Under the pieces are notes generated by a model. That model saw only the letters and a list, made by a program, of their open reading frames with translations. It made no database searches and was not told where the DNA came from. Positions 3,355 through 19,848 of a stretch of DNA of 64,000 bases are shown here, one piece after another; position 1 is the first letter of the stretch; the number at the start of each line of letters is the position of its first letter. Both the position numbers and the translations under genes were made by a program. This DNA is from Escherichia phage phiEc_1, in sequence record LC768462.1; one strand, 5' to 3'.

Positions 3355-4413
3355 TTACGCCGCCACCTTTCCCGCGGCAGTGAACAGAACGCCGGAAGCG
3401 TACGGGTTGCGGTGACGCAGACCAACTTCCATTTCAATCATCCACTTCTCGTAAGAACCGTCTTTAGCCAGTTCAGTGCGTTTCGGAGCACGCAGAACCA
3501 TCTGAGTCCAGTCAGCGCTACGGAAGAAGTAAACTGCATCGGTAGGCATCCAACGGTTAACGATGATTTTGTAGCTCTGGCCCAGCGGGTCAGTGATGCT
3601 GTTAACTTCGTAGATGAACTGCTTGGTGTTCTCAAAGATACGCTTACGTGAACCCTGAGTATTTTCTTGCAGACCAGCGAAGATCTTAGCATGAGCCGGG
3701 TTAATCATGATGATATCTGCTTCAGAACCAGCGGTATACAGTTGCAGAGTCATATCAAAGATATCAGCTTCGTCAAAACCAATGTTAGTGGTCGGGTTAG
3801 AAGCATTCTGTGCAACTTTAACAGTTACTGCACCAGTATCCGGGTCAGCAGGACCATTCTTGGTCTTGTCAACAACGCCACCAGCAAGACCACCGTGAGC
3901 ACACAGGAACTGGAATGCACCAGTCTTACGAGCTGCATGAGTGTCGTTCAGACCAACAGTTGCAGGATCAGTTGCAGAGTTAGTCAGGTACTGATCAGCC
4001 AGAACGTCGGTACGAGCCTGACCGGACAGAAGGATTTTCTCGAGGTCACGCTTGATCTCTTTACCTTTCTTCTCCAGCTGATACATCAGTTCACGACCAC
4101 GACCGTAGTTAGCGGTGGTGTTAGCAGTATCAGAAACACGAACAACCTTACGCAGAATCTGAGTAACGTTAGATTTGATAATAGTCGGTTTCATTTCGCC
4201 GTCTTCAGCACGAGAGCCTTCGACGTGTGCGTTATTACCGTCAACGCTTGCCAGTGCATCGGTCTGCCAGCTAAAGATAGTCTGGTTGATAGACTCTTTA
4301 CCGGTCATAGATACGAACGGGGTATCCTGAGGGGACAGAACAGAAATCCAGTTAGCAAAAGAAAGTTTTTTACCATTCTGGTCATACGATACAAATAAAG
4401 TTGGATTAGCCAT
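3355..4413 (-). CDS. major capsid protein
   Basis: 352-aa ORF directly downstream of scaffold gene; strong SD; position and size typical. Confidence 0.8.
   Translation of the reverse strand: MANPTLFVSYDQNGKKLSFANWISVLSPQDTPFVSMTGKESINQTIFSWQTDALASVDGNNAHVEGSRAEDGEMKPTIIKSNVTQILRKVVRVSDTANTTANYGRGRELMYQLEKKGKEIKRDLEKILLSGQARTDVLADQYLTNSATDPATVGLNDTHAARKTGAFQFLCAHGGLAGGVVDKTKNGPADPDTGAVTVKVAQNASNPTTNIGFDEADIFDMTLQLYTAGSEADIIMINPAHAKIFAGLQENTQGSRKRIFENTKQFIYEVNSITDPLGQSYKIIVNRWMPTDAVYFFRSADWTQMVLRAPKRTELAKDGSYEKWMIEMEVGLRHRNPYASGVLFTAAGKVAA
3367..3373 (-). other. candidate -1 slippery heptamer G_GGA_AAG
   Basis: X_XXY_YYZ heptamer in capsid frame 6 codons before its stop; -1 frame continues into Ig-like ORF. 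Confidence 0.45.
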
Positions 4414-4454
4414 GTTATGTTAGCTCCTATACTATTAATAATTTAATTTGTCGA

Positions 4455-5531
4455 TTAATCTACGAGGAATTTGAATGCGTCTTCGTGACTAACGCGACCC
4501 TCTGCGAATGCCTTGGCAACCTTAGCGTTGTCGGGCTTATTGGAAGTGCGAGACTTTGCAGCATCAGACTTCACAACCTTGCGTGGAGCACCGGGACGTT
4601 TAATCTTAGCCATCACCTGTTGCTTACCTTTATCAAATTGGTATGCTTTGTGGAGAGCTAGGAAAATAGACGGACGGTTTTCCTTCAATACTTCTTCTTC
4701 AGTAGCACCTAAGTCAATTGCGTATTGCATTAAGTTTTGATATAAGTTTTCATCCCAATTTGGAATCTCACGTTTCAGAATATTAACACATTCAATACTC
4801 TTGGCTTGGAAAGCTTCCTGCTCTTTAGCTGCTGCTTCCTGCTTAATACGGACCTGAGCCTGTTCAAGCTGTTGACGGCGAGCTGTGTACTTCTCTAGGA
4901 AACGTTTGTTTTCAACATATGCTTGAGGATCTTCTACTGCAAGCTTGTCCCAATCAAAACCGTTATAATCTTCAATTACTCGGTCTGCTTCTAAAGACGC
5001 TAGTTCTAATACATCCTTCAAACCTACTACACGTTCCTCGAATGCTTCCATATGACGCTGAAGAGTTGATTCTCGTTCTGTCATATCAGCACCAGTAAGA
5101 TAGCCATTAGAAAGTTCTTCAATAGTCATCTCACGTCCATCAGGAAGGGTGATAACGGTTTCGTAGTCTACATCAAAGACTTCACCTTCACCGTCAGCAG
5201 AATCATCTTCATACTCTGCATCGCTTGAATCTTCTTCCTCTTGTTCTTCTGCTTCAGAGGATTCGTCTTCATCTTCTTCGACTTCGCCTTCCTCTTCACG
5301 ATCTTCCCAACCATCTTCATCTTCGAACTTAAGCTCATCGCTTTCACCGAGAAGGTCGGTATCAAAGTCGAAATCGTCACCGTCTTTTTCCGGGAACTCA
5401 TCGTCAATGTCCACTTCTGGTTCTTGTTCAGATTCTAATCGACCGAGTTCTTCTTTGAAAGAACCTTTCAGGTCATCCAGTTGGAGGAAAGATTTAAAAT
5501 CGTTCGGGTCAATATAATTATCTTGTGGCAT
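4455..5531 (-). CDS. scaffolding protein
   Basis: very acidic, coiled-coil rich, between portal and capsid genes. Confidence 0.65.
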   Translation of the reverse strand: MPQDNYIDPNDFKSFLQLDDLKGSFKEELGRLESEQEPEVDIDDEFPEKDGDDFDFDTDLLGESDELKFEDEDGWEDREEEGEVEEDEDESSEAEEQEEEDSSDAEYEDDSADGEGEVFDVDYETVITLPDGREMTIEELSNGYLTGADMTERESTLQRHMEAFEERVVGLKDVLELASLEADRVIEDYNGFDWDKLAVEDPQAYVENKRFLEKYTARRQQLEQAQVRIKQEAAAKEQEAFQAKSIECVNILKREIPNWDENLYQNLMQYAIDLGATEEEVLKENRPSIFLALHKAYQFDKGKQQVMAKIKRPGAPRKVVKSDAAKSRTSNKPDNAKVAKAFAEGRVSHEDAFKFLVD

Positions 5532-14576: not shown

Positions 14577-14605
14577 GGCAAGAAATTGCCCCGCTCTTTA
14601 AAAAT
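14577..14605 (+). promoter_or_regulatory. boxB-like hairpin + boxA-like element (antitermination site 1)
   Basis: GGCAA-GAAA-TTGCC hairpin then CGCTCTTTAAAAAT. Confidence 0.55.
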
Positions 14606-14641
14606 CAGGCTAGAAAGTGAAAATATTCTCAAAAAAGAGTA

Positions 14642-14670
14642 TTGACACCGGAAAAAGCCTGATATATAGT
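14642..14670 (+). promoter_or_regulatory. strong sigma70 promoter
   Basis: TTGACA-17 nt-TATAGT, A-rich UP-like element upstream. Confidence 0.7.
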
Positions 14671-14677
14671 GAGCATA

Positions 14678-14714
14678 GTCAGCGATGACTTAAAAAATCC
14701 CGCTCTTTAAAAAT
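14678..14714 (+). promoter_or_regulatory. boxB-like hairpin + boxA-like element (antitermination site 2)
   Basis: GTCA-GCGA-TGAC hairpin then CGCTCTTTAAAAAT. Confidence 0.6.
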
Positions 14715-14972
14715 ATGATTTGTCTTACGGGTGGCGGCGACGTCATTACTATAAGGCGCTCAGTTAATTGGTAGAATTGATTCCTGATTCATACGTGACG
14801 CAGGCGGACAATAAGCAATATCAATAAGCCTTATTTGTTCGATACTTTCAAAAGATTAATGCTTGAAAGCGCACTAGATTCCCTGAAAGACAAATCAGAC
14901 TTATCATCTTGCCCTTTCGCATAGATTCACGCGAGATAAGGGAAAGGAATTAAAAGAAGATGATAAAAAGAG

Positions 14973-15001
14973 TTGCAAACGTGGTTAAAGTAGTCCATAC
15001 T
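14973..15001 (+). promoter_or_regulatory. candidate sigma70 promoter
   Basis: TTGCAA-17 nt-CATACT. Confidence 0.4.
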
Positions 15002-15160
15002 AACCACAAGTTAGCAAAACATCGCTAACTAGTTCCCAAATCAACGTATCGCGGGAAAGGTGGCACATAGTGCAGCGATTAGTTCAGGTGTAGGCGGCCT
15101 GTTAATGAATCAGTAAGCCTTCAATGTGACAGTGATTAGCAGACACTTTAAAAGGCTAAA

Positions 15161-15174
15161 CGCTCTTTAACAAT
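15161..15174 (+). promoter_or_regulatory. boxA-like element (site 3)
   Basis: CGCTCTTTAACAAT, closest match to the rrn boxA core as I recall it. Confidence 0.5.
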
Positions 15175-15274
15175 ATGAGTCATAAGTTAAGCCTCACCGC
15201 TTAATCTTCAATCAAATAAAGCTGATTGATATATCCTCCCAATAGCGGGAACGACGAAAAAGATTAAAAAGCGG

Positions 15275-15303
15275 TTGACAGCGAAAACAACATGATTCAT
15301 AAT
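15275..15303 (+). promoter_or_regulatory. strong sigma70 promoter
   Basis: TTGACA-17 nt-CATAAT, A-rich upstream. Confidence 0.7.
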
Positions 15304-15364
15304 GAGCACTCACTAAGCAAATCATCGCTTCAGTGAAAAGCGTAACAACGGCTAACAGTTGCAT

Positions 15365-15407
15365 AGTGTGAGAAAGCACACTGATAGATTTACCGCTCTT
15401 TAATAAT
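15365..15407 (+). promoter_or_regulatory. boxB-like hairpin + boxA-like element (antitermination site 4)
   Basis: AGTGTG-AGAAAG-CACACT hairpin then CGCTCTTTAATAAT. Confidence 0.6.
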
Positions 15408-16226
15408 TTAAACATTCTCCTATATCGGTTGAATATGCTTGATGATAATAACCATCGGAAAGCATACCAGATAAAACGGCGTAAAACTCCCTAAATTATC
15501 AGGGTAAACAGTTTTACATTCCCTTACTGGAAACGTCACCATTGATAAACGGATTCATTGAGTACACGCAAAGACTTGAGCTAATCGCCCACGGTTAAGG
15601 GTAGCGGCGGTCATTGCTAACACGGTGCTACAGTGAAAGAAGTTAATCAGGGTAGGCAATCCCGACGAATTAACGCTCAATTGAGAGCGGCGGGGAGTGG
15701 TTAAAAAGTGGCAAATTGCTATTTAACAATAAGGTTTAGTGTGAACGTTTACAATGTGAACGGCTTGAGATTCATCTTATGATGAAAGTACATAGTCGGT
15801 TTATGTAGTAAACTTGCCGAAAGATATAAAACGTCGGAACATTAGACGGTCAATGACTCTTTCGCAATAGTATCCCGTAGTGGGCGATGACTAGCGATTG
15901 AGAGTTGATATAAAAGGATAGGCGAGAGCGAAAGCAAAGTAAACGATATTGCCGACGGTTACAATAACGTAACTAATTAGAGTCGGACGCACTGCCTTAT
16001 TGTGATGATTGATCATCGCTATCAGGTCGGCTTCGTTTATAGCGACTAATTAAAGATACCAGATGAAACATCACGGATAAGGGGGCGGCAAGGTTAACTC
16101 CTGATAAGACCGCCCCGCTTACCTATAACTACTTAACAACGAGTGGTTATAGTTAAGTTAATAGTGACTTAAACAAGCTCATAGAGAGCGGGGCAATAGC
16201 GCCCTTACAATTGAAAGGTGAATATT

Positions 16227-17952: not shown

Positions 17953-18396
17953 GTGGCTAAATCTAAAATCAGCATGAAGGGCGGGCGTTGTTTTGCTATC
18001 TCTGAACTAGAGAAAGAGAAACCGAAGGCAACTAATCACGTTAGTAAGCGTAGTTTAAAACGTCGTGCTGCAAAGGCTGAGGCTGAATCCCATGTTCCTT
18101 CCAGTGTGGCAAAGCGTGTAGGCCATCGTGTCCATCGGGCTGATGCGTTGTTGTTGGCTGATCATAAACGTTCTTTGTTAAAGAGCGGGGGAGCTAAAAC
18201 AGAAGAGGAGAAGAAGTTAGAAATCTTCTGTAATGGTCGCACCCGTGGTAAACAGAAGTTTAAAGGTAGCACGAAAGACCCGCAGGCTTTCCCTAAGACA
18301 AGCCAGTGTGCACCTGATGTTTTCTACGCAGATAGTAAACACAAGTGGGGCGTTGAAAAATACATTGACCCCATCAAAGAGGCAAGGGTTAAGTAG
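17953..18396 (+). CDS. basic protein, hypothetical
   Basis: 147-aa lysine/arginine-rich ORF. Confidence 0.55.
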   Translation: MAKSKISMKGGRCFAISELEKEKPKATNHVSKRSLKRRAAKAEAESHVPSSVAKRVGHRVHRADALLLADHKRSLLKSGGAKTEEEKKLEIFCNGRTRGKQKFKGSTKDPQAFPKTSQCAPDVFYADSKHKWGVEKYIDPIKEARVK

Positions 18397-18476: not shown

Positions 18477-18499
18477 AGCCGCCTTTGAGCGGCTTTTTG
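18477..18499 (+). terminator. intrinsic terminator
   Basis: AGCCGC-cuuuga-GCGGCU + U5. Confidence 0.6.
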
Positions 18500-18561
18500 C
18501 GTTGCTGTAAGTGCATTTGCGAGTGTATTTATAGCAACGGTCATGTGTTGCTTTCAGGTTT

Positions 18562-18587
18562 GCCCCGGCTACGGCTGGGGCTTTTTT
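18562..18587 (+). terminator. intrinsic terminator/attenuator
   Basis: 8-bp GC-rich stem with UACG loop + U6, 27 nt before next ATG. Confidence 0.6.
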
Positions 18588-18613
18588 ATGTCTACTGTAT
18601 AGGAATCTATGAA

Positions 18614-19348
18614 ATGAAAGCAATTGTATTATCCTCAATCCTAGCTCTGTCCGTAATGGCATCGCCTGTTTTTGCTAAAAGTGGAAACAATGGCAATGGC
18701 AATGGAGGTTGTGGTGTAGGTCAATCTACCAATGGTTGCGGTATCGGAGATTGGTTTAAAGGTGAAAAAGGTGATCAGGGAGAGAAAGGCGACACTGGCG
18801 CTAATGGCATTGATGGTAAAGATGGCATTGATGGTAAAGATGGCATTGATGGTAAAGATGGCATTGATGGTAAAGATGGCATTGATGGAGAACAAGGCGC
18901 TCAAGGTGAAAAAGGTGATTCTGGTGCAGATGGTAAGAAAGGCGAAACTGGCCTAACTGGTGCAGCAGGTTTGAATGGCGTTGACGGATTAAATGGCAAA
19001 AACGGTAAAGATGCAGATATGTCTGCCGTTAATGCTAACGCCAAATCCATCAAAGCTCTGGAACAATCCACCAATAAACGTTTTGCTTCTTTGCAAAAAC
19101 AAGTAGACCGTAACCGTGATCATGCCTCTGCTGGTATTTCTGGCGTGGCTGCAATGGCTAACATCCCGCAAGTAAGTCAAGGATCTGCTTTCTCTGTTGG
19201 TGCTGGGGTAGGTGCTTACGATGGTGAATCTGCTCTTGCTATTGGTGTTAGTGCTCGTTTCAATGAAAACTTAGTAACTAAAGCATCAGTGGCAATGACT
19301 TCAGAGAGTGACGCTGTTCTGGGCGCTGGTGTAAGTTACGAGTGGTAA
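18614..19348 (+). CDS. secreted collagen-repeat protein with YadA-like C-terminal anchor (trimeric-autotransporter-like)
   Basis: signal peptide MKAIVLSSILALSVMASPVFA; Gly-X-Y repeats; C-terminal anchor-like region ending VSYEW. Confidence 0.65.
   Translation: MKAIVLSSILALSVMASPVFAKSGNNGNGNGGCGVGQSTNGCGIGDWFKGEKGDQGEKGDTGANGIDGKDGIDGKDGIDGKDGIDGKDGIDGEQGAQGEKGDSGADGKKGETGLTGAAGLNGVDGLNGKNGKDADMSAVNANAKSIKALEQSTNKRFASLQKQVDRNRDHASAGISGVAAMANIPQVSQGSAFSVGAGVGAYDGESALAIGVSARFNENLVTKASVAMTSESDAVLGAGVSYEW
18806..18877. repeat. 18-bp perfect tandem repeat x4 (GGCATTGATGGTAAAGAT), encodes GIDGKD
   Basis: read directly; fifth diverged unit follows. Confidence 0.9.
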
Positions 19349-19458
19349 GATAGTGCCTCTCCCGAAAGGGAGGGGTGTTTCTATAAGCATCTTTTCGAGG
19401 GTGTTTATTGAAACAACAAAACAGGAGGTAGCAAGTTCTGATAACAACGGCACAGCTA

Positions 19459-19848
19459 ATGTTGACATTGACTATTTATTATGAGGCAGGGAATCAGCCA
19501 ACCGCATGTAAGGCTTTAGTTGCGGATACCGTGATAAATAGAATGGCCCAACGAAAACTGACCGCTGAACAGGTGATAAGACAGAAGAACCAGTTTGAGT
19601 GGATTCCGGTACTATTAAAACAGGAGAAACCTTATAAACGTTATGTAAAGCTGATTCGTGATAAAAATCCGATGACTAAGCAAGCCATTGGAGAAAGCGA
19701 GCGACTTGCTAAACGTGCCCTTAAGAAGAATTATGTTCCGCTGTACAGTGGGACTTACTTTCAGAGTAAGAGCGAAGGGGTGCCAAAATGGTATGCCAAT
19801 CCTATGTATTGTGGTGATTTAGTGTTCGATAATAGCTCTAGGGAATAA
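19459..19848 (+). CDS. SleB/CwlJ-like cell wall hydrolase domain protein
   Basis: YYEAGNQP..VADTVINRM..QFEW motifs; weak SD so start uncertain. Confidence 0.5.
   Translation: MLTLTIYYEAGNQPTACKALVADTVINRMAQRKLTAEQVIRQKNQFEWIPVLLKQEKPYKRYVKLIRDKNPMTKQAIGESERLAKRALKKNYVPLYSGTYFQSKSEGVPKWYANPMYCGDLVFDNSSRE

Follow-up and report, generated by a model that had tools for sequence, protein, structure and literature searches.

A probable miniature trimeric autotransporter whose collagen-like stalk varies in length, an optional cargo of the virulent Kuravirus phiEc_1

In the 2008 record of phage phiEco32, the gene phi32_119 (ABY52920.1) is annotated as 'agglutinating adhesin'. Later records call the gene 'YadA-like protein', 'adhesin', 'tail protein' or 'hypothetical protein'. 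Moreno Switt et al. 2013 (PMC3728262) named phiEco32 among the phages with a yadA homologue, and among the virulence-associated auxiliary genes of N4-like viruses those for YadA anchors rank first in abundance (Zheng et al. 2023, PMC10654107). The adhesin gene itself is already known, by annotation since 2008 and in print since 2013. The puzzle is the presence of an outer-membrane adhesin in phages that kill their host within minutes, and no paper that we found tests why it is there. The polymorphism of its stalk length and the exchange of its cassette are described in no paper found. We here discuss the allele of this gene in 64,000 nucleotides of DNA from Escherichia phage phiEc_1 (LC768462.1); this whole stretch will be called the window. 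It stems from a Kuravirus (phiEco32-like, Gordonclarkvirinae), its best megablast matches being EK5 (99.9%) and phiEco32 (98.6%). Sequence and models indicate that the gene, carried optionally in the early region of a virulent phage, very probably codes for a miniature trimeric autotransporter of secretion type Vc, its stalk being collagen-like. For the whole statement, molecular identity and adhesive role taken together, we estimate a probability of roughly 0.5.

The coding sequence starts at ATG 18614, stops at 19348 and comprises 244 amino acids plus the stop codon (Table 1). The longest mechanical open reading frame (ORF) in the ORF list, 18485-19348, opens at an upstream TTG, which is not a real start because the extension runs across a terminator hairpin. 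The ATG is preceded, at a distance of 9 nt, by the Shine-Dalgarno sequence AGGA (18601-18604). A preliminary description of the locus had let the feature begin at 18562, which is the first base of the terminator stem and not the start of an ORF. Apart from this, all the elements it had listed were found in their places, and the plan it had proposed, signal peptide, Gly-X-Y repeats, coiled-coil stalk and YadA-like anchor, is borne out by Pfam, by sequence matches in the PDB, by AlphaFold and by Foldseek.

By inspection, the predicted signal peptide MKAIVLSSILALSVMASPVFA, followed by KSG, has a basic N-terminus, a hydrophobic core of ~18 residues and V-F-A at positions -3 to -1; the mean Kyte-Doolittle value across residues 3-21 is 2.1. 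The collagen-like triplets are rich in K, D and E and contain no proline. Pfam recognises them as Collagen (PF01391) with an E-value of 8.6e-17 and 61.1 bits against a cut-off of 27.2. Formation of a triple helix would fit the trimerising helix and anchor that lie directly C-terminal to the collagen run. In the helical stalk, the hydrophobic residues show the 3/4 spacing of heptads, as read from the sequence. G177-V187 are invariant in alignment A1, and so is W244, the terminal aromatic residue of the C-terminus GAGVSYEW. The Pfam profile YadA_anchor is covered completely (residues 185-244 match profile positions 1-60 of 60; E 2.5e-19, 69.6 bits against a cut-off of 22.7). Up to an E-value of 1, the Pfam scan yielded only Collagen and YadA_anchor and no YadA head, neck or stalk domain.

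The structure was modelled by AlphaFold2 as a monomer from a 19-sequence alignment. The model contains a helix at residues 129-182, with a predicted local distance difference test score (pLDDT) of ~74-86, and four strands at 193-202, 205-217, 220-229 and 234-242 (pLDDT ~80-86). Compared with PDB sequences by phmmer, the protein matched YadA (2LME; residues 155-244, 6.4e-8) and Hia (2GR8, 3EMO and 2GR7); the other matches were collagens. Foldseek, run against the PDB, returned just five matches at E <=1e-3: Hia (3EMO, 2GR7 and 2GR8), AtaA (9VNJ) and YadA (2LME), with target TM-scores of 0.65-0.82 and root-mean-square deviations of 1.8-3.0 A. An anchor of the autotransporter type, a helix with four strands, is present in the predicted fold; its absence, which the preliminary description had named as a refutation, was not observed.

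The most variable part of the gene is a perfect 18-bp tandem array in the collagen-like region. The unit GGCATTGATGGTAAAGAT occurs in four exact copies, which start at 18806, 18824, 18842 and 18860 and end at 18877, just as first described. The program TRF sees a somewhat longer array with a period of 18, 4.7 copies, 100% matches and a score of 170. It encodes GIDGKD four times, followed by GIDGEQ. A comparison of repeat numbers across isolates had been proposed and came out positive; the homologous ORFs were extracted from the records of relatives and the units counted by script. Near-identical phages turned out to differ widely, yet always in frame (Table 2). Lengths change by multiples of 18 bp, with one case of 144 bp, and every complete copy is intact. 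Since the flanks are 98-100% identical, the changes in repeat number are recent. Slippage of the array would alter the length of the stalk and nothing else; on/off switching is impossible, the unit being 18 bp. A contingency (phase-variable) locus was accordingly rejected: every variant stays in frame and only the length varies.

Table 2. Units, triplets and protein length in Kuravirus alleles of the adhesin gene
Phage	GIDGKD units	G-X-Y triplets	Protein length (aa)	Remark
KM01	0	12	196	144-bp deletion
EK5	1	22	226	
phiEco32	2	22	226	
phiEc_1 (window)	4	28	244	
EcM-vB1 / EcK-vB	4	37	258	allele B
Ec3-ASingh	5	30	250	
SkaterBoy	7	34	262	
MN03	at least 6			record stops inside array
PGN6866	at least 9			record stops inside array

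The missing 144 bp of KM01 are bracketed exactly by a 15-bp direct repeat, GGTGAAAAAGGTGAT, which encodes GEKGD and is found at 18761-18775 and 18905-18919. The deletion fits a recombination between these two copies, as judged from their position. Besides slippage of the array, the direct repeat offers a second path to a shorter stalk. The array has also left its traces in the databases. MN03 and PGN6866 end at it, FS2B is split there into two deposits (MW929182 and MW929183), and ShigP1 has a run of N inside it, which is an assembly gap. The 18-bp repeat, in short, disrupts the short-read assembly of several deposited Kuravirus genomes.

How such a protein would work can be sketched from its family. 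The precursor would be exported by Sec and cleaved after VFA21, and three chains would be inserted by BAM as a 12-strand barrel. The passenger would leave through the pore with its C-terminus first. The coiled coil would form and set the register, whereupon the collagen triple helix would zip towards the N-terminus. In a collagen helix each residue contributes 0.286 nm. The Cys-containing tip would, by this measure, stand ~25-30 nm above the outer membrane (84 residues x 0.286 nm plus ~5 nm of helix). One 18-bp unit corresponds to ~1.7 nm by the same standard geometry, and the collagen part calculates to ~10 nm up to >30 nm among the isolates; slippage or unequal recombination would generate the phage lineages of this range.

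What the fibre is good for is a more delicate question. It may coat the infected cell and mediate adhesion to neighbouring cells or surfaces, or aggregation; arguing by analogy, we hold this role to be a serious candidate at somewhat less than even odds. Auto-aggregation or adhesion would hold the burst near fresh hosts, and the stalk may owe its length to the thickness of the O-antigen or capsule layer beyond which the tip has to reach. An adhesive or aggregative role is favoured because the characterised members of both parent families behave that way and because the repeat number of Lcl tunes these traits. Characterised trimeric autotransporters generally serve adhesion or auto-agglutination. 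On the collagen side, the repeat number of Lcl scales with binding, sedimentation, biofilm formation, adhesion and aggregation (PMC6460258), and that of BclA is cited as setting the length of the exosporium filaments (Sylvestre 2003, as cited in PMC10470788). Whatever its role, the gene is, to judge from its intact complete copies, its in-frame changes and an architecture that recurs in unrelated virulent phages, maintained and not decaying.

The recurrence is best seen with the C-terminal 112 amino acids as a query. By tblastn, ORFs with a YadA anchor were found in 102 of 50,697 phage records, the majority of which belong to phage groups known to be virulent. With these numbers, and with the annotation of 2008 and the discussion of 2013 in mind, the earlier remark that such an adhesin is unexpected in a virulent phage has to be dropped. 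Apart from Kuravirus, the matches comprise the N4-like Salmonella phages FSL SP-058, SP-076, TR2, UTK0002 and SP154 (65% identity), Erwinia S6 and Pantoea LIET2, the jumbo phages GAP32, fHe-Yen9-04, Munch, PHA46, XbC2 and the Aeromonas D3/D6 group, the T4-like SKML-39, phiR1-RT, TG1 and PM2, 7-11-like phages of Proteus and Cronobacter, and the temperate P-EibA and P-EibD (34% identity). The homologue of FSL SP-058 lies between the genes of an RNA polymerase subunit and a dUTPase, not among the tail genes; a position outside the tail module was also noted for the N4-like homologue in PMC3728262.

The same plan, a signal peptide, a small Cys-containing head, collagen, helix and anchor, is met in IMG/VR contigs of ~72 kb. 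One of them (L022; IMGVR_UViG_3300047160_001842, 72 kb) encodes, at 3920-4681, an autotransporter with the tip GNNGNGNGGCGVGQTTNGCG, proline-rich collagen triplets and a divergent anchor. It has the exact tip motif GNNGNGNGGCGVGQ(S/T)TNGCG in a protein that is otherwise 40% identical. Because the tip is kept while the rest has drifted so far, it presumably has a function, and the sequences suggest that it moves or is conserved as a module.

An exhaustive HMMER search collected 2,352 cluster representatives at E <=1e-3; among the 147 nearest ones, at least 8 G-X-Y triplets were seen in 17. The combination of collagen and YadA anchor is not exclusive to phages. This possibility was considered and rejected in view of chromosomal cases: in Yokenella the collagen-anchor gene sits between thiM-like and crcB-like ORFs, as read from the ORF translations, and in P0166 it adjoins the arc operon and valS. 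An origin from the E. coli host was likewise rejected, since 5,426 complete genomes contained no blastn match.

In the Kuraviruses the gene travels as a cassette. It is flanked by the homologues of phi32_120 (17953-18396) and phi32_117 (19459-19848), and the slot between them has three known states. In SU10 it is empty: behind the two terminators come ATGCCCGT and, with nothing in between, the leader of the hydrolase gene (AAAACAGGAGG...). In SGF2 and 172-1 it holds the gene of a 99-aa HTH_37 protein. These two phages have in common with the adhesin cassette the 5' junction (TCTATTGTATAGGAAT) and the 3' part including its hairpin, and this 3' part keeps the decayed last 21 nt of the adhesin ORF (GGTGTAAGTTACAAATAGTAA). 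As the junctions and the decayed end remain, the HTH_37 gene must have overwritten an adhesin cassette. In the third state the slot is filled with the adhesin gene, of which there is a second allele, B (EcM-vB1, EcK-vB and ShigP1). It has another signal peptide, another tip (HSDKCSHSKQC...) and another upstream hairpin with T6; the junction core TATAGGAA is retained, and here, too, two Cys precede the collagen. With at least 95% identity, the adhesin anchor is found in ~14 of 99 related phage records. Like a moron, the locus is a fixed position, with conserved genes on both sides, that may be vacant or occupied (empty, adhesin, HTH_37); of an own promoter and terminator there is no sigma-70 promoter, a gp36 match at chance level and a downstream hairpin with a weak U-tract.

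The junction core TCTAYTRTATAGGAA (18591-18606 of the window) is conserved before three different cargoes or alleles, right after the hairpin and T-run. Outside the window it is seen at ~2262-2280 of L007 and at the junctions of L009 and L010, even where the hairpin sequence differs. It is a candidate for a ribosome binding site context, a recombination site or a weak promoter. In T4-type phages, shuffled ORFs are flanked by promoter/stem-loop modules, of which this arrangement of hairpin and junction is reminiscent. In 172-1 an extra insertion (L010 1621-1743; window ~18500-18560) separates the backbone terminators and encodes a hydrophobic peptide of 40 amino acids (1721_11). The intergenic region, thus, offers at least two insertion points, each beside a hairpin.

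As to transcription, the terminator directly before the gene is a convincing one. Its 8-bp stem (18562-18581) has 7 G-C pairs and is followed by T6 (18582-18587); none of 200 shuffles folds as well, and 26 nt separate the T-run from the ATG. The preliminary description had called this terminator strong, which is correct, and had read it as a sign of regulated read-through. The latter part fails: SU10, with its empty slot, has the same hairpin at the same place, and the hairpin further upstream, at 18477-18494, is identical in SU10, SGF2 and 172-1. Because phages without the gene have them too, the upstream terminators are no evidence for an adhesin-specific regulation. In allele-B phages (EcM-vB1), a different hairpin with T6 takes the equivalent position. 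By sequence comparison the terminator at 18562 is an element of the backbone or of the cassette boundary. The hairpin behind the gene is kept downstream of the HTH_37 cargo in SGF2 and 172-1.

Neither an anti-termination signal nor a promoter was found for the adhesin gene, and the search for sigma-70 promoters near it, including 18588-18613, was negative. A gp36 promoter was considered and rejected: TACTGTATA (18593-18601) is one mismatch away from the consensus TAATGTATA, and the window holds 19 such matches against 19.9 expected. The mismatch sits in the ATGTA core, and the other two cassettes read TATTGTATA and TATTATATA. A search of the conserved intergenic region for RNA elements gave sub-threshold matches only (MicX, 22.7 bits against a gathering score of 75). 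According to the SU10 paper, the whole arm (SU10 CDS, i.e., coding sequences, 69-125) belongs to the early class, with sigma-70 promoters upstream of the phi32_124 homologue (PMC4281155). Two early promoters of the SU10 type are present in the window, at 14642 and 15275, and three terminators, 17149, 18477 and 18562, lie between them and the ATG of the adhesin. Most likely, transcripts would start at these strong sigma-70 early promoters, 3-4 kb before the gene, and reach it by reading through the three terminators, so that its expression should be early but attenuated. The promoters themselves are near-consensus and embedded in ~1.6 kb (14600-16220) upstream of the phi32_124 homologue that lack a convincing ORF. 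A motif, CGCTCTTTAA(A/C)AATATGA, recurs there ~50-100 nt downstream of each promoter (14704, 15164, 15395-like).

Table 1. Features of the adhesin cassette and its surroundings in the window
Feature	Position	Strand	Basis or value
First intrinsic-terminator-like hairpin; conserved intergenic backbone, outside the cassette	18477..18499	+	free energy (dG) -15.4 kcal/mol, z -3.2
Second, stronger intrinsic terminator; left edge of the variable slot	18562..18587	+	dG -18.6 kcal/mol, z -3.8
Accessory cassette, 827 bp, inserted relative to SU10 ('CCCGT' in its place)	18591..19417	+	junction alignments
5' junction of the cassette and translation-initiation region, TCTACTGTATAGGAAT	18591..18613	+	junction comparison
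Coding sequence, allele of phiEco32 phi32_119 'agglutinating adhesin'	18614..19348	+	ORF list, relatives' records
Predicted signal peptide, residues 1-21 (MK, hydrophobic core, cleavage motif VFA/K)	18614..18676	+	sequence inspection
N-terminal tip KSGNNGNGNGGCGVGQSTNGCGIGDWFK, residues 22-49, Gly/Asn-rich, two Cys nine residues apart	18677..18760	+	
Collagen-like region, 28 unbroken G-X-Y triplets, residues 50-133	18761..19012	+	sequence count, Pfam, PDB search
Perfect 18-bp tandem array, copy number polymorphic among isolates	18804..18888	+	TRF, script counts
Alpha-helical stalk / pore-traversing helix, residues 134-184, including the ASAG / GVAAMANIPQ motif	19013..19165	+	AlphaFold, 2LME match
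YadA-type membrane anchor, residues 185-244, four beta-strands, ends VSYEW	19166..19345	+	Pfam PF03895, Foldseek
GC-rich hairpin, 7 nt past the stop codon, weak U-tract, part of the cassette 3' end	19355..19376	+	dG -18.4

Two neighbours deserve a remark. An ORF of 43 amino acids with a GTG start (19353-19484), annotated as phi32_118 in phiEco32, EK5 and SkaterBoy, sits in the 3' untranslated part of the cassette. Its start codon falls within the hairpin, it extends into the beginning of the hydrolase gene, and its first 65 nt are absent from SU10; it is probably not a gene. The phi32_117 homologue (129 aa) contains the Pfam domain Hydrolase_2, a cell-wall hydrolase domain of the SleB type (1.7e-7). 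It has no obvious signal peptide, and one would hardly look for a lysin in the early region; its task may be something else than lysis at the end of the cycle. A functional link of the adhesin to this neighbour in lysis was rejected, as the hydrolase is present in every relative, with or without the adhesin.

Several observations weigh against an adhesive autotransporter. The literature search found no test of localisation, expression, phenotype or function, be it for the protein or for its phage homologues. Immediately before the gene stand two strong terminators, and the search for a promoter was negative. The gene is dispensable, since ~85% of the related records do without it. Pfam shows no recognisable ligand-binding head. 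The structure was modelled as a monomer only, and tip and collagen stay below a pLDDT of 50, which one would expect if the chain folds only as a trimer. Finally, it is conjectural that aggregation would benefit a phage whose host is lysed within tens of minutes.

The main rival to the adhesive role is superinfection exclusion or receptor masking. A layer of fibres on the infected cell, and later on its debris, would hinder the adsorption of competing phages; the fibre might also keep the progeny from being wasted on O-antigen and lipopolysaccharide receptors. The purpose would be analogous to that of the Llp lipoprotein of T5, which blocks FhuA. Exclusion genes of virulent phages, such as llp of T5 and imm and sp of T4, typically belong to the early region, and it is in the early region that this accessory gene is located. 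The slot alternates with a small regulatory gene (HTH_37), as expected of a locus that deals with hosts or competitors, and unrelated virulent phages have captured the gene repeatedly. The O-antigen is a required receptor of Kuraviruses (PMC11990801), and a fibre layer of 10-30 nm is of the same order as the O-antigen layer. A PADLOC scan, however, gave no match to a defence model, and it is uncertain whether enough copies are made behind three terminators to shield a whole cell. We also know of no characterised trimeric autotransporter that excludes phages. On balance, we consider this explanation unlikely, though well worth keeping in sight.

Still less probable is a neutral passenger, i.e., a bacterial adhesin gene of recent acquisition that brings no benefit and whose expression behind two terminators is low, the variation of the repeat being mutational noise. 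The gene is, indeed, carried by only ~14 of the 99 related records; in SGF2 and 172-1 the HTH_37 gene has overwritten it, KM01 has lost part of it, and the search for a promoter at it was negative. A neutral gene, however, would hardly keep an open frame in every complete copy, even after repeat changes and the 144-bp deletion of KM01. Two diverged N-terminal alleles both keep the signal peptide, two Cys and collagen, and the plan of collagen plus anchor is kept in N4-like phages at 65% identity. Nor is it a fresh pick-up from the host, as the 5,426 E. coli genomes contain no close source gene.

The fibre might also protect the infected cell from an animal host or from grazers during the latent period, e.g., by resistance to complement and serum or by binding of immunoglobulins. 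YadA and Eib confer serum resistance, and bacterial collagen-like proteins such as Scl1 bind complement regulators; the anchor discussed here is homologous to that of EibA and EibD of temperate phages (34% identity). Its passenger, however, consists almost wholly of collagen repeats and has no domain of the Eib or YadA type, the isolates come from sewage and water, and the latent period is so short that the benefit would be small. We regard protection as improbable.

That the gene codes for a virion component, a tail fibre or 'tail protein' as labelled by RefSeq, BASEL and some GenBank records and suggested by PHROG 26246 ('tail protein', 2.9e-105) and by many collagen-like PHROG matches to tail fibres, is hardly credible for a product with a predicted cleavable signal peptide and an outer-membrane beta-barrel anchor, encoded in an early cluster far from the late structural genes (the N4-like homologue, too, lies outside the tail module) and absent from SU10 and ~85% of the related records, hence not universal among phages of the same virion design; the virion structure of SU10 is solved and comprises two sets of tail fibres, per the BASEL paper, and the PHROG label is most simply due to the similarity of collagen repeats.

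Returning to the adhesive autotransporter, one may ask whether it stands for more than a single gene. Mini-autotransporters with a collagen stalk could be a phage-adapted class of surface fibres, made from non-structural regions, that remodel the infected cell and have their length tuned by the repeat. We consider this generalisation doubtful. If it were true, Kuravirus, N4-like and other phages would exclude competitors or clump with fresh hosts by means of a fibre, the tandem repeat would tune this fibre to the thickness of the host's O-antigen or capsule, and lytic phages would have a new extended phenotype. The Kuravirus copy is convenient for such studies. It is small (244 aa), its natural, isogenic-like variants span 0 to at least 9 units, the slot also occurs naturally in an 'empty' and a 'replaced' form, and at least one of the carriers, SkaterBoy (Bas90), forms plaques on E. 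coli K-12 whose O-antigen has been restored. There are also practical reasons to care. The gene is mislabelled as 'tail protein' in RefSeq, its repeat breaks or gaps several published assemblies, and in candidates for phage therapy it may be flagged as a virulence factor.

How, then, does the protein of phiEc_1 compare with known systems? Its next of kin are phi32_119 of phiEco32 and the copies in EK5, SkaterBoy (Bas90_0117) and EcM-vB1; all are one and the same gene, flanked in an identical slot by the homologues of phi32_120 and phi32_117. The DNA of the region is 98-99.9% identical among these Kuravirus alleles and phiEc_1, the C-terminal 112 amino acids 97-100%, and the number of GIDGKD repeats is the sole difference between phiEc_1 (4), phiEco32 (2), EK5 (1) and SkaterBoy (7). 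The start given in the phiEco32 record is further upstream and runs through the terminator; ATG 18614 is the better one.

With YadA (2LME), Hia (2GR7, 3EMO) and AtaA (9VNJ) the protein shares the signal peptide, the pore helix, the four-strand anchor and the C-terminal aromatic residue. In contrast to them, it has no beta-roll head, no neck and no long coiled-coil stalk, but a collagen-like run and a tip of 28 amino acids; its 244 residues compare with a median of 419 in the 147 nearest cluster representatives, and it is carried by a virulent phage. Eib of the temperate coliphages P-EibA and P-EibD is likewise a phage-encoded trimeric autotransporter of E. coli with a homologous anchor. That anchor is only 34% identical, however, and Eib is prophage-borne with a large, YadA-like, immunoglobulin-binding passenger, whereas phiEc_1 is virulent and its passenger is collagen.

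More similar in plan are the proteins of the N4-like Salmonella phages FSL SP-058, SP-076 and TR2 and those of some chromosomes of Enterobacterales (Yokenella regensburgei, L097; P0166). They, too, have a signal peptide, a Cys-containing N-terminal part, a helix and an anchor, and their G-X-Y repeats are rich in GKDG/GIDG. The phage anchors are 65% identical and the phage genes reside in a non-structural region; the chromosomal ones sit among housekeeping genes. These proteins are longer (290-390 aa), and a head of ~55 amino acids (...ISQCAS...NCNN...) takes the place of the GNNGNGNGGCG tip of phiEc_1.

The protein is not a member of the Lcl, BclA or Scl families, the NCBIfam scores for collagen-like surface families all being far below their cut-offs. 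What it has in common with Lcl of Legionella, BclA of Bacillus anthracis and Scl1/Scl2 of streptococci is a G-X-Y stalk beside a trimerising domain and an in-frame polymorphism of the tandem repeats from strain to strain. These fibres differ from the YadA-type anchor of phiEc_1 in the way they are held: Lcl uses type II secretion and peripheral attachment, BclA is bound to BxpB of the exosporium, and Scl is anchored by LPXTG.

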